A DNA stretch of 56,756 nt from a virus (IMGVR_UViG_3300049926_000118:1-56756), one strand, 5' to 3'. Shown: positions 8,714 to 56,756, numbered from the stretch's first letter. The notes: generated from the sequence alone by a model not told the origin. Translations and numbers: made by a program.

Positions 8714-8992
8714 TTAAACCTCTATGTTTTGTGGCTCATTATTTAAAAGTAAGTAGACAGTCCTTGCCCATTCCTTCCAGTCCTTAAAATTGTCTTTTCT
8801 GGTTCCTTTGTAGACCGAGAACGGAGAAGGGACACGATTACGTCTAAATACCCCAGTTCCCGCTACAATAGCTGCCCATTCTTGCCATTTATCTTCATCT
8901 ACAAGAGCCGGTAGGTAAGAAGAAGAATTGTCTGCTACTAACGCTCCAGCCCAATTTTTTAAAGTTATATATTCAGGGTAAACTACTAACAT
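8714..8992 (-). CDS. Small phage tail-region protein
   Basis: 92 aa, WQEWA/WKEWA motifs, abuts both neighbours. Confidence 0.6.
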   Translation of the reverse strand: MLVVYPEYITLKNWAGALVADNSSSYLPALVDEDKWQEWAAIVAGTGVFRRNRVPSPFSVYKGTRKDNFKDWKEWARTVYLLLNNEPQNIEV

Positions 8993-10584
8993 TATCTACC
9001 ATCCCCCAGTCCTAATAAGAGCATGATCTGTCCCACTTCAAAGTTATCACTTGAGGAAAATTTTAGAGCTATATTGCGCCCTTGGGCTCTCGTATCAATT
9101 TTGTTCGTGGTATTTGTAAATGCTAGCTGTTGTTGCTGTATAGATGGACTTTGAGCATATTCTTTCGTTGAGATTGTAACGATAAAGTTAGCAGGACCAT
9201 CAGTCACGAAATCAGGCTCAATTCGCTGTATGTCAACCCATCTATTTACCAATTGAGCAGGCTGGCTTTGCTTTGAGAGCTTCGGAGGAAATGCCGTCCA
9301 AGAGAATAGAGGTGCTAAAAAATATGACGGTATAGGTTCGGTAACCGGAACGGCATTTACAATTCTTTCTTGAGCGGTATTAAACTCATGTCTCCATAGG
9401 TAATTTTGATTATCAGGATTAACCAGAGCAGTTCCATGCGTAGCCATAAATCCAAAATTATTAGAAAATGTACCAGCTTCTCTAGAGATAGGCGTATCGT
9501 ACCAAAAGTTTTCTCTCTTGTTGTAAACAATGGCTCTTGAATTGCCGGGAACGCCTTTTACAGGATAAAACCACCAAATTTCACCATATTTGGCATTTTT
9601 TACCCCGAATACTTGCTGTCTTCTGTCTAAGTCAAGATTATCAAAAAAGTAATTCTGATTTAGTCTATTCGGTAATTCGTCTACAATACCGTTGTACACA
9701 AAGAATCTATCTGTTCCGGGCCAAAAGAAAAAACCGTCATACTCAACCACGCATCGGCTAGATAAAATGGATGAGCCCGTAGAAATAGTCTCGGGCTTAA
9801 ATACCGTAGTTGCTTTACTATCAGGAGCAGGTCCGGTATTAGTTACACGAACTACAGAAGATAATGTCCAAAGCAATAAAGAAGGAACACTTGGACCACC
9901 TCGAATTGGACGACCAAAAATGATCTTATCCGAAGAGGCTGTAAAAATATTTACAGCAGGTAACTCAAATGGACTTTTTTCCGAGCTAAATTGAACAGTT
10001 CCATTAGAGCCAAATAAAAACATATAAGGTGACGCAAAACATAGATTGCCGTTGATTAACTGATTAAGTCCTACCATAGGAATCAGTTCGGCATTCACCT
10101 CATCTAGTGCTTTGTTAATTTCTTTCCGATAAAACTGGGCAGTAGTTGCTTGCTCATTTATATCTAAAGCATTACTAGTTTTCATGAATACGATATATGA
10201 TTTCGCAGGAGAACCAGGAGAAGCATCTCTCTGGATTGCATCTACAACAGTTTCTGTTTCCCACAAAGTATTTTTGCTGTCATGAATAGTCAGTAAGGGA
10301 TTTTGGGTTATAAGGTTTACATTTGAATCGGAACTAATTACCGCAAGCCCGGTGCTGTGACTCACAAAGGTTAAAACTTGAGTGTTCTGAGGGTTAGGAT
10401 AAATTTTTAAATTCGTCACGCCGGCAACACCACCTGTGTTTATCCCTTTCATACCTCCGATTTTTTTTATTTTATCCCGTTGGAATCTTACCCATTGAGC
10501 ATCGGTACAGTATGTCGATTGAAAAGTCGTGCCATCTCGCTGAACGCCTGAATTATAAATAAGAGGATATAAGGTAGCTGCCAT
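8992..10584 (-). CDS. Putative tail nozzle (P22 gp10 / tail tubular B-like)
   Basis: 530 aa beta-rich; GVQRDGT..., FFWPG..RFFVYNG, GEIWWFYP motifs; follows adaptor gene. Confidence 0.65.
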   Translation of the reverse strand: MAATLYPLIYNSGVQRDGTTFQSTYCTDAQWVRFQRDKIKKIGGMKGINTGGVAGVTNLKIYPNPQNTQVLTFVSHSTGLAVISSDSNVNLITQNPLLTIHDSKNTLWETETVVDAIQRDASPGSPAKSYIVFMKTSNALDINEQATTAQFYRKEINKALDEVNAELIPMVGLNQLINGNLCFASPYMFLFGSNGTVQFSSEKSPFELPAVNIFTASSDKIIFGRPIRGGPSVPSLLLWTLSSVVRVTNTGPAPDSKATTVFKPETISTGSSILSSRCVVEYDGFFFWPGTDRFFVYNGIVDELPNRLNQNYFFDNLDLDRRQQVFGVKNAKYGEIWWFYPVKGVPGNSRAIVYNKRENFWYDTPISREAGTFSNNFGFMATHGTALVNPDNQNYLWRHEFNTAQERIVNAVPVTEPIPSYFLAPLFSWTAFPPKLSKQSQPAQLVNRWVDIQRIEPDFVTDGPANFIVTISTKEYAQSPSIQQQQLAFTNTTNKIDTRAQGRNIALKFSSSDNFEVGQIMLLLGLGDGR

Positions 10585-16638: not shown

Positions 16639-19600
16639 TTAATTATTTATTTGTTGTTTTAATATTTTTATTTCATTGTTTAGTTCTTTTACCGCATTAA
16701 TTAGAGCGTATGTTAAAGCTGTCCCATCATACATGCGCATATCGGATATATCTCCCTTCTGTATTTTTTCAACAATACATTCAGGGAATATGTCTTCTAT
16801 CTCTTGGGCTATTATTCCGATATTTATTTTGGCTTTTTCGGATTCTGGATAACCACTTCTATCGTTATATTTAAATTTTCTTGTTTGAATTTGTATTATT
16901 TCAGCTAAACCATGTTCATAATCTCCCACTACATCTTTTATTCTTGCGTCAGAAAAAGCAACCCACCCACCCGCTCCAATTTTAGAGGCGTTAGCACTAT
17001 TAACAGTTAATAATTGATCTGGTGCTGCAGTGCCGATGCCGAGTCTGCCGTTGCCTTTTAACCGCATTAATTCATTTGAGGTTGTAGTAGAAGTTCCTGC
17101 GTAGAAAACAAAATTTTCTGTAGCATTTGATGCTACTTGAAATCTAAATATATTACCATTTACTCCTAGACCGGTAAATTGATGATCGTTACCAAATGAG
17201 TCATATAATACTATTTTTCTATTTGCGATAGTGTTGGCAAACTGAAGAGGAGCCTGGGGAGTCGAGGTGCCTATGCCTACAGATACTCCGGAACCTCCAA
17301 GTACCAGACAGTTGCTTGCTCCTACAGATGCTTGATATCCTATAGCTGTAGCATTGGTTAGATTATTTGCGGATGCATCTGCTTCGGCGCCTAAGAATAA
17401 ACAATTATTATATGTTGTCTGACTTGAACCGCTCCTAAGACCAAAGCATGAATTAAAACTACCTGAGGTAGCGAACTGCAAGCTACCACGACCAAAAGAA
17501 CTGTTCCCTGACCCAAGAGCCATAGAGTTAGCACTAAAGGAGCCGAAAGCACAGTTATCATCCCCGTTAACACTAGATTCAAGAGATTGAGCTCCAAATG
17601 AAGAATTCTCTAAACCTAAATTATTAGAGTATAAGCTTCGGTACCCAAATGAAGAATTATAATTAGCAGGACCTGAGTTGTTATAGAGCGATTGCACTCC
17701 AAATGCACTATTATAACTACCTAGAGTATTTAAAGCGAGCCCTAGAGCTCCAAAGGAGGAATTTGATATACCAGTAGTATTCTGGTTTAAAGAGGCGCTC
17801 CCTACGCCTGTATTATTACTACCATTTGTGAGTGATGCTAAACTATTTATCCCAACACCAGTATTCGATGTGCCTGTAAGAGTAAGATTCCCTGCTAAAG
17901 TACCAATAAAAAAATTATTAATGGCATTATCTAGTATTCTAGTAGGATTGCCTGGTGAATAATAATCAGTACCGGCTATACCAATAGTCAAAACACCAGT
18001 TGTAGTAGTATTCTTAAGTAATCCTGTAGCTAGACTACCAAGTATTTGAGCATTTGTTAATGTAGCATTTGCAGTTTGTATAATATATTTTGCAGCAGCC
18101 GGAGCTATCCCTGCACCTGAAATAGAAGTATCAACATAGTTTTTAGTAGCTGCATCTTGTGCTAATGTAGGATTAAGTAAATTAATGATCTTCTGACTAC
18201 CTAAACTAACACTAGCAGTAGGAGCAGCAAATTGATCCAATCTAAATGCTGTTACGGCGGAATTGAAATTAGTGATCTGAGAAGTTGTAATATTAGTTAA
18301 AGTAGTAGCAATTGTTGTTCCGAGCGCTCCACTACCTGTTACAGCCCCACTCACTGTAATTGTTCTAGTGTCAACATAGTTTTTAGTAGCTGCATCTTGT
18401 GCTAATGTAGGGTCAAGTAAACTAATGATCTTCTGGCTATTAAGATTAAGACTAGTAATCGGCGCAGCAAATTGGTCAAGTCTAAAAGCAGCAACAGCGG
18501 AATTAAAATTAGTAATTTGAGAAGTGGTTATATTAGTTAAAGTAGTAGCAATTGTTGTTCCCAAAGCTCCTGTTCCCGTGACTGCTCCGCTTAATGTAAT
18601 ACTTCTAGTATCGACATAATTCTTTGTAGCTGCTTGCTGAGCTGTTGTGGGATCGAGTAAATTGATAATGTTTTTGCTGTTTAGATCTAAATTAGCTACC
18701 GGAGCTTTAATTTGATCCAACGTCATATTTAAGGTAGTTGTGATAGGACTAGTAACTAATCCTGAGCCGGTTACATTTCCATTTAAAGTAATTGTAGCTG
18801 TTGGAATACCGCTAACTGCAGCATCTACATAAGCCTTAGTAGTAGCATTTGTTGAAGATAAAGGATCTGCAACCGTAAGAGTGTTATTAGTATTAAATAA
18901 AGCAAACTTACGCCAATTTGTACCATCATATCCATCGAATGTAGTAGTATCGGTATTAAATAATATCATACCGTTAGTACCGTCTATTCCGCTTACCATC
19001 TGTAAGGCATTTCTTTCGGCTGTCGTCAATCTAGAAAGAAGCAATGCGCCACTATCAGAATGTATTTCTAATAATGCAGATTCACTTGTAGAGTTCCCTA
19101 AACTTCCTATTTCACTGGTAAATACAGAACAGATTTGAGTATTATAAGGAAAAAACCTAACCGATGTTAATGTATCAACATAAATACTAGACACATCATT
19201 TATAAACCTAATATGCCCTAGATTCCCTATTTCATTAACTGTAGCATTGGAAGCTCCTAGAGCATTAGCGAATCTAAGTAATGGAGCGGGATTAGGAACT
19301 TGATTTATACTAACACCGCTATCTTTTATTACTTTTCCACCTCCGGCATCAAAAATAACGATATTATTTTCTATACCAGTACCTGTATTAGTAACTAAGT
19401 TATCTGTAACTAATGCACTTTCTTGTACATTTTTACCAACTCCGGTGAAAGCAAGTAACTTAGTTGCAGTTGCAGCTCCTGGCGCAATTACTACATTGTC
19501 TTTTGCAATTCCACTATCAGCTATTAGTGTTCCAGTATTATTGCCAAAACTAGTTAGATTATCTATAGCAGATACTATAGGACCAATTACATTGCCCCCC

Positions 19601-19824
19601 CCTGTTCCTACCGGAATTGGCTGCACCTTGTTTTGTACTACTGCTTCTAATTGATCGGTATCTATATTATACCATATTCCACCGTTTACTTTTGTAGTAG
19701 CCGGAATAACTGCAATTTGATTGGTATTAAGGGTAGGAACATAAAGTCCATTATTTGGATTACCAGAATTTTGAGCAGTCGTTACAGCTAAACTTGTAAA
19801 TCTAGTGATTGGTGGATTTGCCAT
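16639..19824 (-). CDS. Long tail fibre with C-terminal intramolecular chaperone (peptidase S74)
   Basis: FSDARIKD and IGIIAQEIEDIFPE motifs; ATK.YVD repeats; N.AFG..SL 14-aa repeats; GIGT..P motifs. Confidence 0.85.
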   Translation of the reverse strand: MANPPITRFTSLAVTTAQNSGNPNNGLYVPTLNTNQIAVIPATTKVNGGIWYNIDTDQLEAVVQNKVQPIPVGTGGGNVIGPIVSAIDNLTSFGNNTGTLIADSGIAKDNVVIAPGAATATKLLAFTGVGKNVQESALVTDNLVTNTGTGIENNIVIFDAGGGKVIKDSGVSINQVPNPAPLLRFANALGASNATVNEIGNLGHIRFINDVSSIYVDTLTSVRFFPYNTQICSVFTSEIGSLGNSTSESALLEIHSDSGALLLSRLTTAERNALQMVSGIDGTNGMILFNTDTTTFDGYDGTNWRKFALFNTNNTLTVADPLSSTNATTKAYVDAAVSGIPTATITLNGNVTGSGLVTSPITTTLNMTLDQIKAPVANLDLNSKNIINLLDPTTAQQAATKNYVDTRSITLSGAVTGTGALGTTIATTLTNITTSQITNFNSAVAAFRLDQFAAPITSLNLNSQKIISLLDPTLAQDAATKNYVDTRTITVSGAVTGSGALGTTIATTLTNITTSQITNFNSAVTAFRLDQFAAPTASVSLGSQKIINLLNPTLAQDAATKNYVDTSISGAGIAPAAAKYIIQTANATLTNAQILGSLATGLLKNTTTTGVLTIGIAGTDYYSPGNPTRILDNAINNFFIGTLAGNLTLTGTSNTGVGINSLASLTNGSNNTGVGSASLNQNTTGISNSSFGALGLALNTLGSYNSAFGVQSLYNNSGPANYNSSFGYRSLYSNNLGLENSSFGAQSLESSVNGDDNCAFGSFSANSMALGSGNSSFGRGSLQFATSGSFNSCFGLRSGSSQTTYNNCLFLGAEADASANNLTNATAIGYQASVGASNCLVLGGSGVSVGIGTSTPQAPLQFANTIANRKIVLYDSFGNDHQFTGLGVNGNIFRFQVASNATENFVFYAGTSTTTSNELMRLKGNGRLGIGTAAPDQLLTVNSANASKIGAGGWVAFSDARIKDVVGDYEHGLAEIIQIQTRKFKYNDRSGYPESEKAKINIGIIAQEIEDIFPECIVEKIQKGDISDMRMYDGTALTYALINAVKELNNEIKILKQQINN
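18131..18850 (-). repeat. About 80-aa (240-bp) tandem modules in tail fibre
   Basis: tcaacatagt/tcgacataat anchors at 18131, 18371, 18611; degenerate fourth near 18824. Confidence 0.85.
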
Positions 19825-30469: not shown

Positions 30470-30712
30470 TTACATGAACTCACTTAAAGATTTCTTTTTC
30501 ATAGATCTTGGCATTCCTTGAGCTGTTGCCTCTTCATGCCTGATTTTGGCTACTCCGCCCATAGCAAACTTCTTCGCTGATTTTTTACAATCCTTACCAC
30601 CACTCATAGATTTCATGGTCTTTTCGGCTAAGTCTCTCATTGAATCTGGTTTGTTTTGATATCCGGCTTTCATACCCTTAGATTTCATAGACTTCTTCAT
30701 TGTTTTCTCCAT
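30470..30712 (-). CDS. Small K/M-rich basic phage protein
   Basis: KKFAMGG motif; overlaps portal end. Confidence 0.6.
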   Translation of the reverse strand: MEKTMKKSMKSKGMKAGYQNKPDSMRDLAEKTMKSMSGGKDCKKSAKKFAMGGVAKIRHEEATAQGMPRSMKKKSLSEFM

Positions 30713-33101
30713 TTTTGATTAATTCAGTTTCTGCTTTTAGTTGCGCTAGTTTCTCGTTAGACTCGATTTTGGCTTTTTCTTTCTCGACTGCTAACTGAGC
30801 TTTTGATAGGTCGGCTTCGGTTTTTAGCTGTGCTATCTCTTCGTTTGATTCGATTTTGGCTTTTTCTTTTTCAAAATCTAATTGCGCTTTGAAGATGGCT
30901 GTTTCTGTTTTTTGATCTTCTATTCTCTCCCTAGCTTCAACTTCGGCTTGTTGCTGTTGAATATCAGCTAGTATCAATTCTTCAGGAGATGGAGAGGATG
31001 GTTGATTTTCTTGGTTTTCCTCTAATGATCCGGCTATAGCAACTGCGATTTGATTCTGAACTTGAGGATCTAATATTTGCTCTAATGGAGGCATCTCCAT
31101 TCCTAGTAATTGCTGCATTTGCATTAGGTATTCTAATGCTTCATGTTCTTTTATATGAGCCATTACAGCGGGAGCAGTTTCCGGATAGTCTTGAGCGAAT
31201 AATCCGTGAACTAATTTATGAGCAGCATGATCTTGCCAAATAGCAGCTTTGACAGGTTCATTTTTCATAATATTTAAGTTTTCGCTAACAGGATCTAACG
31301 GCAAGATTTCTTGTTCTTCCGGTGGAGCGGGTAATATCTGATCTATCTGACTAGCATCTAACCCTTGAGCTTCATAGTTTTTCTTGAAAACCTCTCTCAT
31401 ATCATGTAACTCAGGAGCTTGCATCGCCGTTCTTAAAAGCGATTCTGCTTTTATTATCCTTTGTATTGACGAGCCGGCAGCTGGATCTGAAACCGGAATA
31501 ATCATTACTTCATCAACGAAATCCTCAGATGTAATAACCTTTCTTTCTTTCCCAAAATTAAACTCTTCCGTTTGTAGAGTTTTTTTGAAAATATTATTTA
31601 ATAGCTGTAGTTCCTTGCTAAAAGAATTATGTATAGAACTAGAAACGGCGGATTGAATTTTATTATTTGTTTCGAGTAAAGCTAATGTTGTGCCGACAGG
31701 AATATCTTCTTTTGAACTAAGCATCCCCAGTTCGCTTGTAGAAGCTAACTTCTCACATTCCTGTATCATTTCTAATCTAAGCTCACGAAGAGCATTAGAA
31801 GGCTCAGAATAAGGTAATGGCATTAATGCATCGGTAAGAGGCAATCCATTAGTATCTACCTCGATCCATTCTCCTGGACCAACTATTATAGTACTATCTT
31901 GTTGCTTAAACCCTTTGGCTCTCAATCCGGCGGGCATATTCTTGAATATACCGGCATCAATTAACATGCGTTGTATAGAAGTTAAAGAAATAGCATTAGT
32001 GCCTATTAGATGAGCTAAACCGTTCCCATAAATACCGAACCCGGGCAAATAATTATATTGAACAAAATACTCTCTTTGCTTTTTATCCTCATCGTCTTCA
32101 TCCCAATTGCGTGAAATAGATAGTATTTCTTTAGAAGCTTTATCTATAGTTACAATATAGGGAAGAGATACGATACTATCACTTTGAGAGTCTTTATTTT
32201 CTTCAGTAAAATCATCAAGTGTTAAATATGCATGAATTTCATAAATTGGAAATAAAGAGCGTTTTTTGTATTCGCTAAGATCTACTTTTTCTTTCCTTTC
32301 AGAAGACTGGTTTGAGCTATCGTCGTTATCACCAATTTCGGAATTTTTTAAATAAGGAAGATCAACATCAAGAAATATTTTATTTTGCTGATTGAGAATA
32401 ATTTCTCTTTTAGAAAGATGTAAAATATGAGTCAGCCTACTTGACTCTAGAATAGAAGTGCAATCAGCATCTATTACAAAATTTTCGGGCATGATAAAAC
32501 GACTTAACGGTCGTTTTAATAACTTATCGAAATATACTTTTTTAAATATTGTGCCACAAAAACCTAGATTAAGTAAAAATCTATCGCAATCAGGATAATA
32601 AGCGCTATCTTTGACTGTTAAATAATAATTTAAATAGTCTGTATTTAACTCGGCTTTTCGGTCTGTTTCTTCATTGCTATTACCGTTAATTTTAAATCCA
32701 GCTGGTCCACTTAAGGGATAAAGTTCGGGTTTATTAGTAGCGAAAAAACGGATTACGGCTGTAGAGAACGTTGTATCAAATGTCCTTGTACCTTGTTTAT
32801 ATCCCTTTAATTCAGAAGCTTCTAAGTCAAAGCCAAGATATGCTTTTGCTTTTTCAATAGGATCAAGCCATTTTTGGCGAACTACTATATCTTCTTCAAT
32901 ACCTTCCAATAGAAAGGTAGATAGTTTTTTTCTTGCTTCTTCAGGGAATTTTTCAGCTATATTCTCATAAAAATCTGTATTTTCAGATTCTTCTATAGCG
33001 GGACTAGAGCCAATTTCATATACCGAAGACCCGTCTTCTAAGTCTTCAATTTTTCTTATATCTTCATCAGAAGTTTTCATGTATATATGAATAACCCTCA
33101 A
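30678..33101 (-). CDS. Portal protein
   Basis: FYENIAE, ELYP..GP, G..FKKVYFD, YFVQYNYLPGFGIYG.GL.HLIG, LIDAG...N.PAG, PVGTTLALLE; start may be ATG 33080. Confidence 0.85.
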   Translation of the reverse strand: MRVIHIYMKTSDEDIRKIEDLEDGSSVYEIGSSPAIEESENTDFYENIAEKFPEEARKKLSTFLLEGIEEDIVVRQKWLDPIEKAKAYLGFDLEASELKGYKQGTRTFDTTFSTAVIRFFATNKPELYPLSGPAGFKINGNSNEETDRKAELNTDYLNYYLTVKDSAYYPDCDRFLLNLGFCGTIFKKVYFDKLLKRPLSRFIMPENFVIDADCTSILESSRLTHILHLSKREIILNQQNKIFLDVDLPYLKNSEIGDNDDSSNQSSERKEKVDLSEYKKRSLFPIYEIHAYLTLDDFTEENKDSQSDSIVSLPYIVTIDKASKEILSISRNWDEDDEDKKQREYFVQYNYLPGFGIYGNGLAHLIGTNAISLTSIQRMLIDAGIFKNMPAGLRAKGFKQQDSTIIVGPGEWIEVDTNGLPLTDALMPLPYSEPSNALRELRLEMIQECEKLASTSELGMLSSKEDIPVGTTLALLETNNKIQSAVSSSIHNSFSKELQLLNNIFKKTLQTEEFNFGKERKVITSEDFVDEVMIIPVSDPAAGSSIQRIIKAESLLRTAMQAPELHDMREVFKKNYEAQGLDASQIDQILPAPPEEQEILPLDPVSENLNIMKNEPVKAAIWQDHAAHKLVHGLFAQDYPETAPAVMAHIKEHEALEYLMQMQQLLGMEMPPLEQILDPQVQNQIAVAIAGSLEENQENQPSSPSPEELILADIQQQQAEVEARERIEDQKTETAIFKAQLDFEKEKAKIESNEEIAQLKTEADLSKAQLAVEKEKAKIESNEKLAQLKAETELIKNGENNEEVYEI

Positions 33102-33559: not shown

Positions 33560-34750
33560 CTAATAGATTCTTACCTCTTCTCTTCCATAAGGAGGAATAG
33601 GACGCTCATCTCTCGGATTAAGAACGAATTGTCCGTCACGTAGTCTCGTTAAAGCTTGAGACATAGTATCTACTAGATCATTACTAGCAGCAGTAGGAAA
33701 CCTGGCGCACGCTTCTAAAAACTCATCGGCAAATGGTACTAACCTATCATAATTGGGAGCTTTCGCAATTAACCACACTCGCCCCCCTTCTATTAGAGGA
33801 GTAATATAACGAGCTCGAGGAATTTTTTTGGTTGTCGGAATAAATGGTATAGTTCTTATACCGGATCTATTCAGATCTGCAATTAACGGGTCTCCGGAAG
33901 CCTTTGCCTCAATAAGACACATATCTACGGGTCGAGGTGCTCCATTTGGTGGTAAAATTCCAGTATCTCGATAATCATAAAATAGTCTTTTCGCTCTTTC
34001 TCTAACTTCCGGATATTCTAATTTACCACGCCACATAGAAAGTAATATTATATTTTCGATATGGTTATGGTCGTAAAACACTCCCCAGGTAGTGCATGCC
34101 GAAAAGGCTGCTAGCTTATCCCCTTTTAATGCCGTATCCCAACTTTGTAGCACAAACTCGATCTCTGGAAGGGTATTACTTTTCCACCAACAGAACCAAG
34201 CCTTTTTGAATAACCCCCCTTCGGCTGGACTAGGTAACTGCTGAAGTTGCGCTGCAGATCTATATTGAGACCCAAGGTCATTTTTTAAACTTTGGACGGC
34301 TTTTGCATCAAATTTTTCGGGCCACAATAATTCTCCTTCTTCAGTCCTAGGATCTTCCCACACTTTACCATTTGTAGAAGGAAGAACTACAGTCTTATTA
34401 TGACGAGCTGATTCATATTCCATTGGAAGAATTAACTTAGTCCATTCTTTTGATTCGTCATTATTTAGTATCAATCCAGTTATATCTTCTTCATGTATTC
34501 TTTGCTGTACAACAATACGACAGTCGTTTTTACGATCATTTAGACGAGTAGACCAAATCGTATTCCACCAATCTATTCTATTGGCTCTATAAATATCTGA
34601 ACTGCCATCAGCTGCGTTGTTTGGGTCATCACAGTTATGGACTAAAATATTGTTTGCAAAATAATTATTATTGTCTTTTATCTTTAAATTATAAACATAT
34701 CTTGAGCTATTTTTTTTTCTTTTAATACTTTTAATAACTCTTCTTTGCAT
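33560..34750 (-). CDS. terL: Terminase large subunit C-terminal part preceded by split intein C-fragment
   Basis: First 39 aa end VYNL......YFANNILVHN/C; then CDDP, QQRIHE.D, QSWDTA, IEAKASG, NDLVD..SQ; GAGGT RBS. Confidence 0.92.
   Translation of the reverse strand: MQRRVIKSIKRKKNSSRYVYNLKIKDNNNYFANNILVHNCDDPNNAADGSSDIYRANRIDWWNTIWSTRLNDRKNDCRIVVQQRIHEEDITGLILNNDESKEWTKLILPMEYESARHNKTVVLPSTNGKVWEDPRTEEGELLWPEKFDAKAVQSLKNDLGSQYRSAAQLQQLPSPAEGGLFKKAWFCWWKSNTLPEIEFVLQSWDTALKGDKLAAFSACTTWGVFYDHNHIENIILLSMWRGKLEYPEVRERAKRLFYDYRDTGILPPNGAPRPVDMCLIEAKASGDPLIADLNRSGIRTIPFIPTTKKIPRARYITPLIEGGRVWLIAKAPNYDRLVPFADEFLEACARFPTAASNDLVDTMSQALTRLRDGQFVLNPRDERPIPPYGREEVRIY
34634..34750 (-). mobile_element. 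Split intein IntC (39 aa)
   Basis: Intein blocks F/G with terminal HN followed by Cys+1; strongly basic. Confidence 0.9.
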
Positions 34751-35508
34751 TGGTACCTCGATTTCTTTCCATGATGCTTATTATGACATCTCTCACATAG
34801 CGTTATCAAATTATCATCTGAATTATTATGTTTGTTAAAATCAATATGATGTACACTTAAATTTTTATCACATTCCTTTTCTTCAATATTACATAATTGA
34901 CATCTATAATTATCTCTTTTTCTTATCTCATCCCTAATAATACGCCAATTAACAGCGTATCCATGATATACATAACCAGATTGTCCATTTACATAATTTG
35001 AATTTAATTCTTCTTTCATAAATATAGAATGATGTTTATCCGCGCAGACACGAGAACAAAAATTCTTTTTGCCAACTTTTCTTTTTGTAATTCGTAAAGA
35101 GATTTTACATATAGTACATGTATCATGTAAATCTTGAAAAAGCGGATGTCCAAATAATTCATTATGTTTCCAATAACACTGTTTTGAACAAAAGACCTGA
35201 CTTAAACTCAGAGAGTTTTTTATTCTAAATTCTTTGTTGCATAATTTGCATAATTTGTTACATCCCACCCCTTTCCAAGAAGGATTATTTTTACCTACTT
35301 GATATTTATCCCAACAAGATTTTGTACAAAATGGATGGGAAGTCTTAAAACTTTCCCCCTTCCTTTTAGTAAACTTTATTTTACACAAAGTGCAATTAGC
35401 AGTGCGTTTTTGTTCTCCTTCCTTAACTAAACATTCCTTAGAACAAAATGTTCTTTTTTTAAAAAACTTAATTTCTTTTTTACAAAACCGACATTGCGAT
35501 ATCACCAT
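34684..35508 (-). CDS. Free-standing HNH homing endonuclease with tandem Cys-rich zinc-binding repeats
   Basis: Four CxxC...FC(S/T)xxC units; RDNYRCQLC...VHHIDFNKHNN...NLITLC..CH..HH; AAGGA RBS. Confidence 0.9.
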   Translation of the reverse strand: MVISQCRFCKKEIKFFKKRTFCSKECLVKEGEQKRTANCTLCKIKFTKRKGESFKTSHPFCTKSCWDKYQVGKNNPSWKGVGCNKLCKLCNKEFRIKNSLSLSQVFCSKQCYWKHNELFGHPLFQDLHDTCTICKISLRITKRKVGKKNFCSRVCADKHHSIFMKEELNSNYVNGQSGYVYHGYAVNWRIIRDEIRKRDNYRCQLCNIEEKECDKNLSVHHIDFNKHNNSDDNLITLCERCHNKHHGKKSRYQCKEELLKVLKEKKIAQDMFII

Positions 35509-36286
35509 TTTTTATATCCTTAGCTAATACATATCCCATATTTTCAATAAAAATAGGATGATCTGCCGTACATTCTAATGTAGAACCATCATCAAATTCT
35601 ATTACTAGTAATTCTTCACATAAATTCTTTTCATAAGCTTCAATTTCCTTATATTCCAGAATTTCAGTTTGATGGTTATAACTTAAAATTTGACAATCAA
35701 GTTGCTTCTCAACAATTTGACCAATAGAAATGTTTCCTAAGGAAGATAATACCATTATAGTATAAGGAAAGCAAACAAGCATACTACCACCCTCGCCTGT
35801 AGTGCCGCTTCCAGAAGATGTAGCGATACGATAACCGGATGCCGTATTATCAAATCTTTTTTTTGTATTCTGATCTTTTAATAATTGAAAACGATCGCCC
35901 CAATTTTTTTGAAACCATGGTGATAATATAAGTGCTCTGCATTTTTGACTATCTCTAGAAGCTAAACTAAAGCTATAGGAAGCATATAAAAATCTTTCGC
36001 TAGGATTCTGTAGCCAAACCCAAGCCGGAAAGGCTATAGAAACTAGTGTTGATTTACTACAACGAGGAGGCATATTAATAAGTAGATTCTTTATCTGCCT
36101 ATTTGCGACAGCTTCTAAATGCTCACAAATTACTTTTAAGTGCCATCCTTCGACAAAAGGTGTATTTCCCTCTATCCACGGCCAAGCTTGCTTTAAAAAC
36201 TCATAAAGCGACATTTCCGCTAGTAAAGCCAGTCTTTCTTCTTGAAGTTGTTGTAATTCGAGTGGGGTTATTGATCTAGATAACAA
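35480..36286 (-). CDS. terL: Terminase large subunit N-terminal part followed by split intein N-fragment
   Basis: Walker A NMPPRCSKST, ASYS..LA, TGEGG then CFP... and ECTADHPIF (intein blocks A and B). Confidence 0.92.
   Translation of the reverse strand: MLSRSITPLELQQLQEERLALLAEMSLYEFLKQAWPWIEGNTPFVEGWHLKVICEHLEAVANRQIKNLLINMPPRCSKSTLVSIAFPAWVWLQNPSERFLYASYSFSLASRDSQKCRALILSPWFQKNWGDRFQLLKDQNTKKRFDNTASGYRIATSSGSGTTGEGGSMLVCFPYTIMVLSSLGNISIGQIVEKQLDCQILSYNHQTEILEYKEIEAYEKNLCEELLVIEFDDGSTLECTADHPIFIENMGYVLAKDIKNGDIAMSVL
35483..35773 (-). mobile_element. Split intein IntN (97 aa)
   Basis: Begins CFPYT, contains TADH block B, ends AKDIKNGDIAMSVL-stop; strongly acidic. Confidence 0.9.
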
Positions 36287-39184: not shown

Positions 39185-40513
39185 ATGCTAATCACTTCTA
39201 GAAATAAAGGAAGATATTTAACTAAAAACCAAAAACAATCTGCCGCCTTATTACAGATAGGTACTTTCTTAGAGTACTTTGATTTAATGCTATATGTACA
39301 TATGTCGGTAGTTTTAAATGAGTTGTTTTTTCCTAAGACCGACTCTTACACTTCCCAGCTAATAACAGCATCTACTTTTTGCACTACTTTTGTTTTAAGA
39401 CCATTTGGAGCTCTCTTTTTTGGATATTTAGGAGATACACGAGGGCGTAAATTAACTGTGGTGATAACCACATTTGCAATGGCTATAGCATGTTTGGTTA
39501 TGGGTTTTCTTCCTACATACGCAGAGATAGGAATTCAAGCTACTTATATAATGATATTATGTAAAATAGTGCAGGGGATGTCATCCATGGAGGAAGCTGT
39601 AGGTGCAGAGATATATTTAACTGAATCATCGAGTCCTCCAATTCAATACCCACTTGTTAATTCTATTACTATTTGTTCGGCATTAGGTGGAACATGTGCC
39701 CTAGGTGTAGCGGCGTTAGTAACTAATTATAACTTTAATTGGAGATGGGCGTTTTTTGCCGGTACAGTAATTGCATTAGCTGGAACAATTGCAAGATCAA
39801 CCCTGAGAGAGACCCCTGAATTTATTGAAGCAAAACGCAATCAAACCAAAAAAGTTGCTAAATTAAATGAGAGGAAAAATAAAAAGAAAGTTGTTGATCG
39901 AAAAGAAAAGATCCATAAGAAAACAATGCTATATTATTTTCTTATCCAATGCGCCAGACCCGTACTGTTCTATTTTTCATATGTATATAGCATAGATATA
40001 TTAAAAGGTAGTTTTCACTGTAGTACTGACTATATAGTTGTATATCTTTTTTATCTAGCCTTAGTAGATCTAGTTGGAATAATCATACCTACTTACTTAA
40101 GTTATAGAATTGATCCTCTAAAGATATTAAAGGTAAAAACCTATATCTTTGGAGTATTTATTTTATTCTTCCCGTATCTTCTAACAAAAGCCAGTTCGCC
40201 ATTAGAGCTGTTTTATATTCAAAGCTTTTTTGTTTTATTTCGTATTGATAGCTCACCTGCAGCTCCTATATTTTATAGCCATTTCCCGGTACTCAAAAGA
40301 TTTACCTATGCCGGGGTTATGTATGCCGTTTCAAGAGCTCTTTTGTATATAATAACATCATATGGTTTTGTAATTCTCATAAAATATCTTGGATATAGTG
40401 GAATGTTAGTTATAATGCTACCTACGATAATAGGCTTTTATTTTTCTATCAGATATTTTCAGAAACTGACTAGAGAAAAAGAAGTGGAACGGAAACTAAA
40501 AAGCTTTATTTAG
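39185..40513 (+). CDS. MFS transporter, ProP-like (MHS family)
   Basis: GTFLEYFD.MLY, RPFGALFFGYLGD..GRK, LPTYAEIG, WRWAF, LRETPEF; about 12 TM segments. Confidence 0.9.
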   Translation: MLITSRNKGRYLTKNQKQSAALLQIGTFLEYFDLMLYVHMSVVLNELFFPKTDSYTSQLITASTFCTTFVLRPFGALFFGYLGDTRGRKLTVVITTFAMAIACLVMGFLPTYAEIGIQATYIMILCKIVQGMSSMEEAVGAEIYLTESSSPPIQYPLVNSITICSALGGTCALGVAALVTNYNFNWRWAFFAGTVIALAGTIARSTLRETPEFIEAKRNQTKKVAKLNERKNKKKVVDRKEKIHKKTMLYYFLIQCARPVLFYFSYVYSIDILKGSFHCSTDYIVVYLFYLALVDLVGIIIPTYLSYRIDPLKILKVKTYIFGVFILFFPYLLTKASSPLELFYIQSFFVLFRIDSSPAAPIFYSHFPVLKRFTYAGVMYAVSRALLYIITSYGFVILIKYLGYSGMLVIMLPTIIGFYFSIRYFQKLTREKEVERKLKSFI

Positions 40514-53586: not shown

Positions 53587-54459
53587 TTATAATAATCCTA
53601 ATCCATTTATTGCATCTGTTACGGATTTAAAACCATTGAAAGGCGGAAGCTCATGCGTAATATTCTTCTTAGGTTTAACATAAATATTGCTCGAAATTCC
53701 AGTTTTTGGATTAATTACTCGCTGAACTATAGTTTTTTTGAATGAAAACTCAATAGTTAATACTTTACGTCCTTCCTTAAATTCCTTGAAGGTTAGACCA
53801 TAATCATAAATTTTATTTATTTCTTGACGGGCGTGCTCAAAGGTTCTTCTTTTAAAGTCTTTATATTCCTTCAATTTATCTCCAACCGCAAATATTTCTC
53901 TTAGTTCTTCAACTGATTTTCTTATCCAACCCGTTTCTTTGAATTCTTGGATTAATTCATATAAACGGGTAGTATATAAGCTATGAAAGCCGCTTACTTC
54001 TTTTAGGTTATATAATACGAATTTTTGTTTAGCTTCTTGTGCTAGATAAGGCATTATATCATCGGTGAACTTTATAGTTATACGACCTTCCTTTTCGCAG
54101 TATTTTGCTGTGGAACATACATTAACTTCCAAAATTTCATCTAATTCAATTTTGTTCAAGAAGATACTAGTTTTCATCAGCTTCTTACATGCCTTCTTTA
54201 ACAAACCATAACTATCTGATATAGGAACATCAAACATCTGGCTAAACTCTTTTGCGGTCAATACATGTTCTCTCTGTAATTGCTCCGGCTGTAGATATTT
54301 ACCATATCCATCAACTCCACCTACCTTAGTCACCAAATGCAAAAATACTTTATAGTCAGAGTGAGTAAGATCGCCAAAGTTAGCATTATTCAGCTTCTTA
54401 TCTTTATAGACTTTTGGTGTTTTAGAATTTAAAACCGGAAGGAAGTTACTTTTTTTCAT
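53587..54459 (-). CDS. Plasmid replication initiator, Rep_3 (RepB) family
   Basis: Y..LK.A...LM, I.FT..IMPYL, Y.L.E...F.S.YT.RLYEL, FK.R....A..EIN, K.GRKV..I.F; iterons upstream. Confidence 0.9.
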   Translation of the reverse strand: MKKSNFLPVLNSKTPKVYKDKKLNNANFGDLTHSDYKVFLHLVTKVGGVDGYGKYLQPEQLQREHVLTAKEFSQMFDVPISDSYGLLKKACKKLMKTSIFLNKIELDEILEVNVCSTAKYCEKEGRITIKFTDDIMPYLAQEAKQKFVLYNLKEVSGFHSLYTTRLYELIQEFKETGWIRKSVEELREIFAVGDKLKEYKDFKRRTFEHARQEINKIYDYGLTFKEFKEGRKVLTIEFSFKKTIVQRVINPKTGISSNIYVKPKKNITHELPPFNGFKSVTDAINGLGLL

Positions 54460-54541
54460 TATTTAATCTTGATATATCTAATAGCGTCAAATTATCTTCC
54501 ATCACTTTTAATGTCAATGGTTATTTTTGAGAAATTTTCTA

Positions 54542-54824
54542 TGTGAATAACCTAACCTTTTCGAATAGGAAAAAGTCCTATTTTAGGTGGAAAAAAGTCC
54601 CATTTTAGATTATGCATAATTTTACTATTTACATTCCTTATATCTTATGACTTCTAAGGCAAAATTTTGCTATATTTCTTAGGTGGAAAAAAGTCCCAGT
54701 TAGGTAGGAAAAAGTCCCATTTACCACCCAGAATACCTTATACCATAAGCCCTGCAAGGCGCCTATAAATACTTATAAAACTATATATAAAAGATATATG
54801 AAAGGGATAACTTTGGTGGATAAC
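54542..54824. repeat. Plasmid origin: four iterons plus DnaA-box-like sites
   Basis: ttaggt(g/a)g(a/g)aaaaagtccca at 54583, 54679, 54700 and partial at 54566; tgtgaataa 54542 and ggtggataa near 54816; AT-rich tract. Confidence 0.8.
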
Positions 54825-54901
54825 TAAAAATCTAGAAACATTTATTAAAATCCGCTAAGGTATAGATTAGGTCTTAAGTGATCATTCAAGAGGAGAAGTA
54901 T

Positions 54902-55156
54902 ATGTTAATTGATACACTTGATGCAGTAAAGAAGTTACGTGCAGCTAATATTCCTGAAGAACAAGCAGAAGCGATTACTAGCATCATTGCCAATATAGAT
55001 GATACAGTTGCTACGAAAGCAGATATTAAAATGCTAGAAACCAAGATTGATACAGATATTAAGATGCTAGAAACCAAGATTGATATTCAAACATCGTGGT
55101 TAATTAGATCCGCATTTGTGATTATCGGGCTCTTGATAAAAATAGCCTTTTTTTAA
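54902..55156 (+). CDS. DUF1640/CCDC90-like protein
   Basis: IDTL..VKKL..A..PEEQAEAI, VATKADI, DIKMLETKID x2 (33-bp repeat 55021-55086), C-terminal TM; start at ATG 54902 after GAGGAG. Confidence 0.8.
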   Translation: MLIDTLDAVKKLRAANIPEEQAEAITSIIANIDDTVATKADIKMLETKIDTDIKMLETKIDIQTSWLIRSAFVIIGLLIKIAFF

Positions 55157-55245
55157 GATTTGGTTTAATTTGTGAGAGAAAATGAAAAAAGAAAAAAAAT
55201 GTTATACGCTAGTGGAAAAAAACAAGTTTCAGTTAGAAGTCTTAT

Positions 55246-55383
55246 ATGATAGAGTTACAAGAAGATATTGAGGATTACAATGATGCCGTTAGGATCTCAA
55301 CAATGAATAACCACTCTCTTTCTTTGGAACAAGTGATTAAAGATTTAGGGTTAAAAGACGAATTGGACAATTGGAATAGGTGA
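55246..55383 (+). CDS. Mini-protein resembling C-terminal half of RelB/DUF6290-type antitoxin (not in ORF track)
   Basis: 45 aa MIELQEDIEDYNDAVRISTMNNHSLSLEQVIKDLGLKDELDNWNR; ED.EDY..A and SLE.V.K.LGL motifs. Confidence 0.55.
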   Translation: MIELQEDIEDYNDAVRISTMNNHSLSLEQVIKDLGLKDELDNWNR

Positions 55384-55601
55384 TAACTGTGAAAAATATT
55401 GAGGAAACTTTATTTGTGGCGTCTAATAGGAAGCTAAGCGAGTCACTCATTGAAGGACTGAATACACCTTATGAAGAATGCACGACAATTTCTATCAAAA
55501 ATTCCAATAGACTAGGAATATTTAAAAATAAAATCAAAGTGGCTGATGACTTTGACGAATGGCCAGATGATATAACTACAATTTTAGGGGTTGAAGATTA
55601 A
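55380..55601 (+). CDS. Fusion of YefM/Phd-like and VapB/DUF2281-like antitoxin C-termini
   Basis: IEETLF......ES..EGL.TP.EEC followed by R.G.FK.KIK.ADDFDE.P; GTGA overlap with upstream stop. Confidence 0.6.
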   Translation: MITVKNIEETLFVASNRKLSESLIEGLNTPYEECTTISIKNSNRLGIFKNKIKVADDFDEWPDDITTILGVED

Positions 55602-55604
55602 ATT

Positions 55605-55733
55605 ATGAAAAAGGGTTACTCTATCGAGTGGGATGAGTTTAAAAAAGCATTAGACGATGATCCCAAAATGCAAGAAATAATAAAAACTATTTTGAAACAT
55701 GAGACAAAAAATGAAAGTAACCAAAAAATGTAA
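55605..55733 (+). CDS. Mini-protein resembling N-terminal arm of HigA-like antitoxin (not in ORF track)
   Basis: 42 aa MKKGYSIEWDEFKKALDDDPKMQEII...; WDEFKK.L..DP motif, no HTH. Confidence 0.4.
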   Translation: MKKGYSIEWDEFKKALDDDPKMQEIIKTILKHETKNESNQKM

Positions 55734-55872
55734 ACTATGCCTTAAGTATAGTGGATATAATAAAGATACTTTAAAAGCCATAGAAGAATCAAGGCAAGGA
55801 ATAGATATTAAGGCATTTTCCTCAATTGAAAAAATGTTTAAGGAATTAAATAGCAATGAGGAAGGCATCTAA
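55711..55872 (+). CDS. Mini-protein resembling C-terminal half of DinJ/RelB antitoxin (not in ORF track)
   Basis: 53 aa ...YNKDTLKAIEESRQGIDIKAFSSIEKMFKELN; N.(D/E)T..AIEE...G.....F.S...MF.EL motif. Confidence 0.6.
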   Translation: MKVTKKCKLCLKYSGYNKDTLKAIEESRQGIDIKAFSSIEKMFKELNSNEEGI

Positions 55873-55936
55873 CAAAGTAATACACTGTTACAGCTACATA
55901 TAACTAACTTCTTTTATTAATTTTTGTTCTGAATGA

Positions 55937-55993
55937 AGTCAATACTTATATTGACTATTTTACAGAATTAGTCAATACTTATATTGACTAATT
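55937..55993. promoter_or_regulatory. Two identical palindromic operators
   Basis: AGTCAATA-CTTA-TATTGACT at 55937-55956 and 55970-55989, directly upstream of HTH gene. Confidence 0.8.
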
Positions 55994-56008
55994 TAGAAAG
56001 GGTTTTAT

Positions 56009-56461
56009 ATGGATTGGGGTTTAAGACAAATTACTTGCGGGCAATTATCAGTGCAAATCTTGCCTCTTAAAGAGGTTGTAAGACCTAGCATAGGTTGGAT
56101 AAAAACTATACGAAAAGTTTTAGGTATGACCAGCCAACAACTAGGCAAGAGGTGCGGAATCAGTAAACAGCGGGTCTTACGAATAGAACAAGACGAGGTA
56201 TTGGGAGTAATTACATTAGCTACTTTAGAAAAACTAGCTAAGCAATTAGATTGTGAACTAGTATATGGTCTTGTGCCTAAAAAGGATTTTAAGCGAACAA
56301 TTTTAGTCCAAGCTGGAAAAAAAGCAAGAGAGAGAATAGAAAGGGTTTCTCATACAATGGTTCTTGAAAACCAAGGAATAAGTGAGAAGGAGGAAAGACA
56401 ACAACTTGAACTATTAATGAAACAGATATTAGATAAAAATATAAAATCTTTATGGGATTAA
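56009..56461 (+). CDS. Mobile mystery protein A (XRE HTH)
   Basis: P..GWIKTIR..LGMT..QL..R.G....RV..IE..E..G..TL.TL...A..L.C.LVY.LVP, V.HTM.LENQ, LWD end. Confidence 0.88.
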   Translation: MDWGLRQITCGQLSVQILPLKEVVRPSIGWIKTIRKVLGMTSQQLGKRCGISKQRVLRIEQDEVLGVITLATLEKLAKQLDCELVYGLVPKKDFKRTILVQAGKKARERIERVSHTMVLENQGISEKEERQQLELLMKQILDKNIKSLWD

Positions 56462-56489: not shown

Positions 56490-56756
56490 TTAAAGATAAG
56501 TACTATCATGGTCAGCAAACAAATTCAGTAATACAAAATAAGCTCCATCTCGATAAGCCGTACCTCGATATTTTTGAGAAAACCTAAATGAATATAGATT
56601 GTTTCCTTTTGACGTTGTTCTAGAGGTGATTAGTTCCCACCTTATACCCTTATCTTTGTATAATCCTTCCCAATCTAATTGCCTAATTTTCTTTAAAGTA
56701 TTTAATAGAGCACGTTGTTCTAATTTTTCTAAATTAAATAACTTTTCTTGAAAACT
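56490..56756 (-). CDS. RelE/ParE-like toxin, 5' end outside window (not in ORF track)
   Basis: Open 88 codons SFQEKLFNLEK...LYKDKGIRWE...YSFRFSQKYR..AYRDG...LL....DHDSTYL-stop. Confidence 0.55.
   Translation of the reverse strand, partial: SFQEKLFNLEKLEQRALLNTLKKIRQLDWEGLYKDKGIRWELITSRTTSKGNNLYSFRFSQKYRGTAYRDGAYFVLLNLFADHDSTYL

Follow-up and report, generated by a model that had tools for sequence, protein, structure and literature searches.

Antitoxin tails without heads or toxins in a compact array beside the replication origin of a phage-plasmid-like virus

What would a virus carry pieces of several antitoxins for, when neither their DNA-binding heads nor the toxins that they neutralize lie beside them? 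This question is raised by a 627 bp stretch next to the replication origin of the virus record IMGVR_UViG_3300049926_000118, in which four small open reading frames (ORF1–ORF4) follow one another on the plus strand. The window referred to below is the whole of this IMG/VR record, which is 56,756 bases long and classed as linear. In an earlier note, made from the sequence alone, the four ORFs had been read as five antitoxin segments from different type II toxin–antitoxin (TA) families, with no DNA-binding domain and no toxin among them, and had been interpreted as a cassette that disarms the TA toxins of a host or of competing elements. Comparison with homologues upholds most of this anatomy: on that evidence, the array is made up of the toxin-binding tails of four type II antitoxins, carried in three of the ORFs and devoid of heads and toxins, and ORF3 stands apart as an orphan.

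Four antitoxin tails and an orphan frame

The four ORFs lie exactly where the earlier note had placed them (Table 1), with the junctions that it had described: ORF1 and ORF2 overlap in a GTGA, 3 nucleotides (nt) separate ORF2 from ORF3, and ORF3 and ORF4 overlap by 23 nt. Plus-strand ORFs of at least 40 amino acids (aa) cover 99.5% of positions 55246–55872, a value matched in none of 2000 mononucleotide shuffles (mean cover 12%), and the packing is not due to chance.

Over 41 aa, ORF1 shares 58.5% identity with residues ~36–76 of an 82-aa CopG/ribbon–helix–helix (RHH) antitoxin (local search, E = 1e-12), which directly precedes RelE on two Candidatus Megaera plasmids, pPCS201 and p1_M_poly_crypto; at the DNA level the identity to this Megaera antitoxin gene is 74% over 103 nt. 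The homology to the parent spans positions 55237–55359, and ORF1 itself starts at parent residue ~38. The NCBIfam profile RelB_antitoxin aligns to ORF1 over its positions 36–69 of 69 (E = 0.047), far below its cut-off. No Pfam RHH match was found for a head of ORF1, the frame being closed four codons upstream of the ATG, nor was any DNA likeness to the first 105 nt of the parent gene found. A RelE/ParE toxin gene is absent directly downstream, where ORF2 follows through the GTGA overlap. ORF1 is, by this homology, the C-terminal tail of an RHH/RelB (CopG)-type antitoxin. The candidate start scar of a lost RelE ('NWTI') comprises ~15 nt at most and can be aligned in two ways, a rival weak alignment assigning its bases to a YefM-type gene instead.

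ORF2 combines two such tails. Residues 5–36 match the C-terminus of P0002, a Phd/YefM protein of 79 aa which ends just where ORF2 continues, with 78% identity. Residues 39–73 share 67% identity with the tail of P0003, another Phd-family protein of 79 aa, and 57–66% identity with the Phd tails that precede VapC in Megaera, L009 and L021. The stop codon of ORF2 occupies the same position as that of the Phd/VapB-type parent, and the NCBIfam profile TA_VapB matches ORF2 at E = 1.2e-4, below its cut-off. No Phd/YefM head domain (PF02604 or TIGR01552) and no Pfam family was found in ORF2, whereas both P0002 and P0003 are matched by phd_fam; over its first 36 residues ORF2 resembles the C-terminus of P0002 and not a head domain. 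No YoeB- or VapC-type toxin lies directly downstream of either half, the ORF that follows the stop codon, ORF3, having no PIN likeness. The in-frame fusion of a YefM-type tail with a Phd/VapB-type tail that the earlier note had proposed is borne out by the homology to P0002 and P0003.

Complex prediction with toxins of several families, which the earlier note had suggested, was carried out for the second tail of ORF2 with a non-cognate VapC. For residues 36–73 of ORF2 with the L009 VapC the score was 0.42, whereas the best of three controls reached 0.08; this result supports an interaction weakly. At least 91% of contacts agree between runs, and the predicted local distance difference test score (pLDDT) of the partner is at least 63. 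Of 80 solved complexes, 58 passed the mark applied in this test, as did two of 110 mismatched pairs; at scores of 0.60 or lower it was passed by only seven of the 80 solved complexes and by both of those mismatched pairs. Because VapC belongs to a textbook family, the pass may reflect likeness and not binding. Searches of the PDB with the sequences of ORF2 and ORF4 returned nothing meaningful.

Residues 17–53 of ORF4 (positions 55759–55869) are 49% identical to residues ~46–84 of a 90-aa RHH antitoxin on the Megaera plasmid pPCS148, in which the antitoxin is followed by a YafQ-like ORF cut to 61 aa. The Pfam family RelB (PF04221) matches ORF4 over profile positions 48–82 of 82 (E = 0.0061, 16.9 bits versus a cut-off of 22.4). 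The first 16 residues of ORF4 have no relatives and are unrelated to any RHH domain. No YafQ/RelE-type toxin was found downstream of ORF4, which is followed by the promoter/operator region of a mobile mystery protein A gene. The alignment identifies residues 17–53 of ORF4 as the tail of a DinJ/RelB-type RHH antitoxin.

ORF3, in the middle of the array, had been described as the N-terminal arm of a HigA-like antitoxin. This assignment could not be sustained: ORF3 has no HTH_3-type domain and no profile or homologue links it to HigA. A HMMER pass over 1.84 billion representatives with ORF3 gave two matches, a chance-like 2228-aa repeat protein and P0005, which at 42 aa has the same length as ORF3 and is 71% identical to it. 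No family match was found in Pfam, NCBIfam or PHROGs, no match in the atlas or among phage records, and no sequence matching the contig of P0005 in a metagenome scan with patterns. As far as these comparisons reach, ORF3 is an orphan, not antitoxin-like and unrelated to the other members of the array. Two candidate origins were considered and set aside. A fragment of a tail-assembly chaperone was suggested by a 30-aa stretch with 52% identity to the C-terminal end of an ORF of 104 aa that precedes the tape-measure gene of L006; this origin is unproven, the L006 ORF being absent from the whole-library search with ORF3 (E ≤ 1e-3) and having no PHROG match better than E = 0.2. The ATG of ORF3 was also considered as an old VapC start, as the stop codon, short gap and ATGAA context resemble the Phd/VapC junction of Megaera; the same context also resembles the start of the replication initiator gene rep, and the stretch is too short and AT-rich to decide on a VapC origin. 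The start region of ORF3 (55594–55620) matches that of rep (54444–54470, other strand) in 23 of 27 nt, which may reflect an AT-rich context of initiation common to both or the duplication of a short stretch.

Taken together, homologues account for four of the five antitoxin segments originally proposed, namely ORF1, both halves of ORF2 and ORF4, and the HigA reading of ORF3 falls away. Profile searches were almost silent, with sub-threshold C-terminal matches for ORF1, ORF2 and ORF4 and nothing in PHROGs, and it was the homologues, not thresholds, that settled the assignments. The tails begin at parent residues ~36 of 82, 46 of 79, 42 of 79 and 46 of 90, and three of the four stop where the parent stops. 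The predicted absence of RHH, Phd and helix–turn–helix (HTH) domains from the four ORFs was confirmed with Pfam, and no fragment has an open frame upstream of it. Nor does any toxin lie between the ORFs, again as anticipated: the gaps between consecutive homologous segments measure 29, 6, 3 and 25 nt and leave no room for one. Toxin families were likewise not found in the 49 of the 70 small ORFs of the window that were scanned, the other 21 making up the structural block and the array region, the latter having been scanned separately with Pfam. The array corresponds to what is termed an orphan antitoxin, an antitoxin-derived ORF without a toxin in cis.

Authenticity, translation signals and setting

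The array, or part of it, has been recovered in independent studies. In a run from a second study (X2), one contig spans positions 54400–55936 and differs only by a G>A at 55460, which is synonymous in ORF2, and in runs from two further studies (X3 and X4), contigs of 151–188 nt are identical to the ORF2 core. The contigs from X3 cover positions 55308–55645 of the array and those from X4 positions 55425–55612, bridging the ORF1/ORF2 and ORF2/ORF3 junctions with zero differences; the missing cover of the rest of the array in X3 and X4 does not indicate its absence from them. No RNA run was among those listed as holding the array. Short fragments of different gene families side by side in a metagenome-derived contig are what a chimaera joining reads from several TA loci would look like; against the X2 contig and the two junctions found unchanged in two more studies, such an assembly artefact is extremely improbable. 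In X3, a freshwater run, two 151 nt contigs are identical to the core formed by the end of ORF1, ORF2 and the start of ORF3; a further contig, over the neighbouring 92-aa gene, shows 12 differences and a 21 nt gap, and as depths differ the contigs may stem from different elements. Any stronger conservation of the ORF2 core relative to its flanks in X3 is therefore tentative, given short contigs of unequal depth. The 92-aa gene contains a 33 nt tandem duplication (55020–55085), at which the diverged X3 copy lacks 21 nt.

Translation signals are uneven. Among 29 long genes surveyed, a Shine–Dalgarno (SD) match of 7 nt was found in one, matches of at least 4 nt in 18 and matches of 3 nt in 11. 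The 7 nt match before ORF2 points to its in-frame GTG at 55389 as the likely real start, giving a product of 70 aa; those of ORF1, ORF3 and ORF4 have 3 nt only. Promoter-like sites in the region are not above chance (seven seen versus 11.7 expected), and no terminator-like site was found between the upstream 92-aa gene and the array. A direct repeat at 55171–55202 and 55700–55731 (75% identical) is at chance level by our estimate.

The iterons and the Rep3-type initiator constitute a plasmid-type origin in a record that also has phage structural genes (Table 1), so that structural genes and a plasmid replication module, the combination that defines a phage-plasmid, are found together on one replicon. 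The terminase, ParA, a major facilitator superfamily (MFS) transporter and a DnaA-like gene have counterparts on a 57 kb plasmid of Candidatus Megaera polyxenophila (Rickettsiaceae), with protein identities of 24–62%. On these likenesses the element is read as a phage-plasmid from the gene pool of Megaera-like (Rickettsia-like) symbionts. The MFS transporter gene (39185–40513) is 46% identical to that of the Megaera plasmid. The large terminase is encoded in two minus-strand ORFs (33560–34750 and 35480–36286), 49% and 62% identical to successive parts of the single terminase gene on the Megaera plasmid, between which lies a 274-aa ORF with a weak Intein_splicing match (E = 6.9e-6, below cut-off); judged from this arrangement, the terminase is probably intein-bearing or otherwise split.

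Table 1. Coordinates of the array, its parts and other features of the window
Feature	Position	Strand	Remarks
ORF1	55246–55383	+	45 aa
AGGTGAT, 7 nt SD match	55377–55383	+	5 nt before in-frame GTG at 55389; overlaps ORF1 stop codon
ORF2	55380–55601	+	73 aa from first start
ORF2 first half, residues 5–36	55392–55487	+	YefM-type tail, corresponding to P0002 residues ~46–75 of 79
ORF2 second half, residues 39–73 and stop	55494–55601	+	Phd/VapB-type tail (VapC-binding part)
ORF3	55605–55733	+	42 aa
ORF4	55711–55872	+	53 aa; upstream ATG at 55699 would give 57 aa
92-aa gene upstream of array (phrog_17872)	54878–55156	+	kept next to rep in relative L004
Rep3-type plasmid replication initiator (rep)	53587–54459	-	Pfam Rep3_N E = 5e-29, Rep3_C E = 8e-14
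Iteron-like direct repeats, directly upstream of rep	54568–54722		units of ~17–21 nt, at least 4 copies
Mobile mystery protein A (HTH, antitoxin-like)	56009–56461	+	TIGR02612, 144.8 bits versus cut-off 122.6
88-aa ORF running off record end	56490–56756	-	in clusters of 92–104-aa hypothetical proteins
Virion structural protein	8992–10584		phage gene
Tail-fibre protein	16639–19824		phage gene
Portal protein	30678–33101		phage gene

Full-length parents with an adjacent toxin exist in the same gene pool, as RHH–RelE, as Phd–VapC (on the Megaera NDG2 plasmid CP113870.1 and in L009) and as an RHH antitoxin with a YafQ-like ORF. ORF1, the ORF2 fusion and ORF4 are singletons in their own length ranges among 5.8 billion protein clusters, pattern scans of IMG/VR for array-like sequences found nothing similar, and a scan of JGI metagenomes found ordinary Phd–VapC pairs only. 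A single related phage-plasmid was found (L004, Rep 63% identical), which has other genes upstream of rep and an intact RHH–RelE pair further on. The syntenic intact arrays that the earlier note had proposed to look for did not appear, no second array being found in the databases searched, and the array is absent from L004. In comparisons with the Megaera homologues (74% DNA identity over ~100 nt) synonymous sites are near saturation, and any pairwise value would mix the time before truncation with the time after it. TA decay is seen in the pool: in L010:3001-3618, from the chromosome of a Rickettsiales metagenome-assembled genome, Phd is split between two frames and VapC is open for its last 55 aa only. 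The Phd–VapC pair of L009 (L009:3001-4284) lies next to a MazE–MazF-like pair on a 6.4 kb contig binned as Saccharibacteria; its antitoxin is 77% identical to P0003, which in turn is 76% identical to the Megaera Phd, and the contig may have been assigned to the wrong bin or derive from a mobile element.

Downstream of the array, mobile mystery protein A is another toxin-less unit of the window: it lacks the Fic-type partner B and is followed, in the region to 56587, only by a 40-aa ORF without family match. Two copies of a 26 nt palindromic repeat precede it (55937–55995), and run X2 lacks one 33 nt copy there. The ORF at the end of the record shows some likeness to ParE/RelE (0.89 in the atlas; E = 0.004 with the MAG6450 family; E = 4e-4 with phrog_8366), and its single-sequence model (pLDDT 60.5) has a predicted helix–helix–three-strand order. 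No fold match to this model was found at E ≤ 0.001, and a PDB sequence search returned nothing meaningful; the likeness is a lead only. Any upstream partner of this ORF would lie beyond the contig.

Remains of lost operons or antidotes in trans

The presence of toxin-binding tails without heads or toxins is predicted alike by a history of loss and by a present use. Given about an even chance, and placed first here, is the reading of the array as a relic, a mosaic to which successive deletions would have reduced a cluster of four or more type II TA operons that once lay beside the origin. The cluster would have comprised RHH/RelB with RelE, a YefM-type system, Phd/VapB with VapC and a DinJ and YafQ type. 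In such a 'deletion ratchet', each deletion would have taken out a toxin gene and, with it, the promoter and the DNA-binding head of the antitoxin next in line. Because the toxin of that antitoxin was still present, the deletion would have been survivable only if its tail continued to be translated and to work, so that the tails in survivors would have start codons, coupling or an in-frame fusion, as well as clean cuts near domain borders. The ratchet would select such tails without any present function being needed. Once the last toxin had gone, the tails would have no task in cis and would probably await loss; if translated, they would still bind their cognate toxins. The relic reading is supported by a prior taken from a Klebsiella screen, in which most orphan antitoxins looked like degraded forms of intact systems (PMC7354431), by the failure to find a second array and by the alien ORF3 in the middle. 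The parents and the TA decay found in the same pool, the partnerless mobile mystery protein A of the window itself, the weak SD matches of ORF1, ORF3 and ORF4 and the chance level of promoter-like sites favour it further. Against it stand the regularity and the state of preservation of the fragments. All four left breakpoints fall within ~10 residues of the end of the DNA-binding/dimerization head, for which uniform cuts would give a chance of roughly (10/45)^4 by a post hoc estimate; no fragment contains a stop codon or a frameshift; and every fragment is in an ORF, though at random junctions in this composition a start would come before a stop in a fraction of only 0.34. The SD match of ORF2 belongs to the strongest class, the array is nearly unchanged, at one synonymous site, in the contig of the second study, and the length of ORF3 has been kept in its homologue at 71% identity. 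A phage genome, moreover, is expected to shed useless DNA.

Several of these same points would be accounted for if the array were an active poly-antidote cassette, a reading considered possible at somewhat less than an even chance. Expressed as minimal tails, the peptides would soak up RelE-, YoeB-, VapC- and YafQ-type toxins of the host or of competing plasmids, and, without binding operators, would avert TA-based abortive infection or the post-segregational killing that follows displacement of a rival plasmid. Exactly the toxin-binding part of four antitoxins has been kept, with breakpoints at domain borders, in fragments that are uninterrupted and translatable, with an in-frame fusion, GTGA coupling and the 7 nt SD match of ORF2; the near-identity of the second study's contig and the economy expected of a phage genome fit as well. 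Plasmids of the likely host genus, which would be natural competitors, carry the nearest annotated parents, and the predicted complex of the ORF2 tail with the L009 VapC points weakly in the same direction. Precedents exist: plasmid-borne orphan antitoxins have been suggested to act against competing elements or against TA defence of the host (PMC11541004; PMC7354431), and the disordered C-terminal domain has been identified as the part of an RHH-type antitoxin to which binding of the toxin groove falls (PMC8706911). On the other hand, no second instance of the truncated tail ORFs or of the fusion was found in the databases searched or in L004, ORF3 has no antitoxin likeness, the ribosome-binding sites of ORF1 and ORF4 are weak, and isolated tails are in general usually disordered and protease-labile. 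Identity to the known Megaera antitoxin tails is only 49–59%, and cross-neutralization of those Megaera toxins is therefore doubtful. The more specific proposal that the headless-tail operon acts in trans as a broad antidote, against both TA-based abortive infection and the addiction systems of rivals, with ORF2 as a two-headed binder of YoeB- and VapC-type toxins, is more tentative still. It is unlikely that the small ORFs were instead recruited from antitoxin debris for a role unrelated to toxins, for instance as regulators of replication or lysogeny, with ORF3 as the sole conserved member. ORF3 does have a homologue of equal length where ORF1, ORF2 and ORF4 have nothing else in their length ranges, its start region is similar to that of rep, and the array immediately follows a conserved gene next to the origin, from which no terminator-like site separates it; but nothing points to a particular function, the sequence of ORF1, ORF2 and ORF4 is wholly explained by antitoxin parents, and ORF3 has no family, structure or atlas match.

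Comparison with known systems

Orphan antitoxins on mobile elements are widely suspected, and have rarely been shown, to serve as anti-addiction or anti-defence devices, chromosomal ccd being an example of anti-addiction. With four tails from four families, without heads or toxins, on a virus that is also a plasmid, the present locus offers an unusually clean test case. Should the tails rescue cells, type II TA counter-defence would prove buildable from minimal disordered peptides, which can be fused, and serial deletion of TA operons would be a route by which such antidote peptides are created. Were the array an antidote in trans, it would rank as the first 'toxin sponge' of type II and would show that antitoxins can be stripped by mobile elements to their neutralizing peptides. 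Should the tails not rescue cells, the locus would document the decay of a TA cluster in which the antidote must outlive the toxin, a constraint that would explain the over-representation of antitoxin tails among TA debris.

The idea of the orphan antitoxin is already known. Cases described include Bartonella pVbh, which carries four orphan antitoxins, and plasmid leading regions with an orphan hipB (PMC7354431; PMC11541004). Like the array, such orphans and anti-addiction modules are antitoxin ORFs without an adjacent toxin on a mobile element, with a proposed action in trans; unlike it, they are whole, retain a DNA-binding domain and occur singly, whereas the array consists of four headless tails in three ORFs, with one fusion. 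No array of headless tails was found in the literature consulted, and the supplementary discussions of PMC11541004 may say more on orphan antitoxins.

Phages are also known to carry substitutes for antitoxins, examples being T4 Dmd, directed against RnlA/LsoA, orphan DarG-like enzymes, directed against DarTG1, and an antitoxin mimic in ICP1. The trait that they share, and that is proposed for the array, is that a virus carries a toxin neutralizer without a toxin of its own, to defeat TA defence. These substitutes are single, folded and experimentally tested, whereas the candidates in the array are type II tails of four families, presumed to be disordered.

Degraded type II loci, such as the Klebsiella orphans, for the most part judged to be remnants (PMC7354431), the split pair of L010 and the YafQ-like ORF of pPCS148, resemble the array in that toxin sequence has been lost and antitoxin sequence left, in a gene pool where TA pairs and gene decay abound. 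Ordinary TA remnants are random pieces, toxin ends or frameshifted whole antitoxins, in contrast to the intact tails of the array, which were cut near domain borders and lie within ORFs. From its intact parents, to which its tails are 49–78% identical and with which they share ends at or near the same stop positions, the array differs in having neither the N-terminal RHH or Phd/YefM domain nor the toxin directly downstream. What would be new here is the form, in which headless tails of four families stand in a row and two of them are fused.

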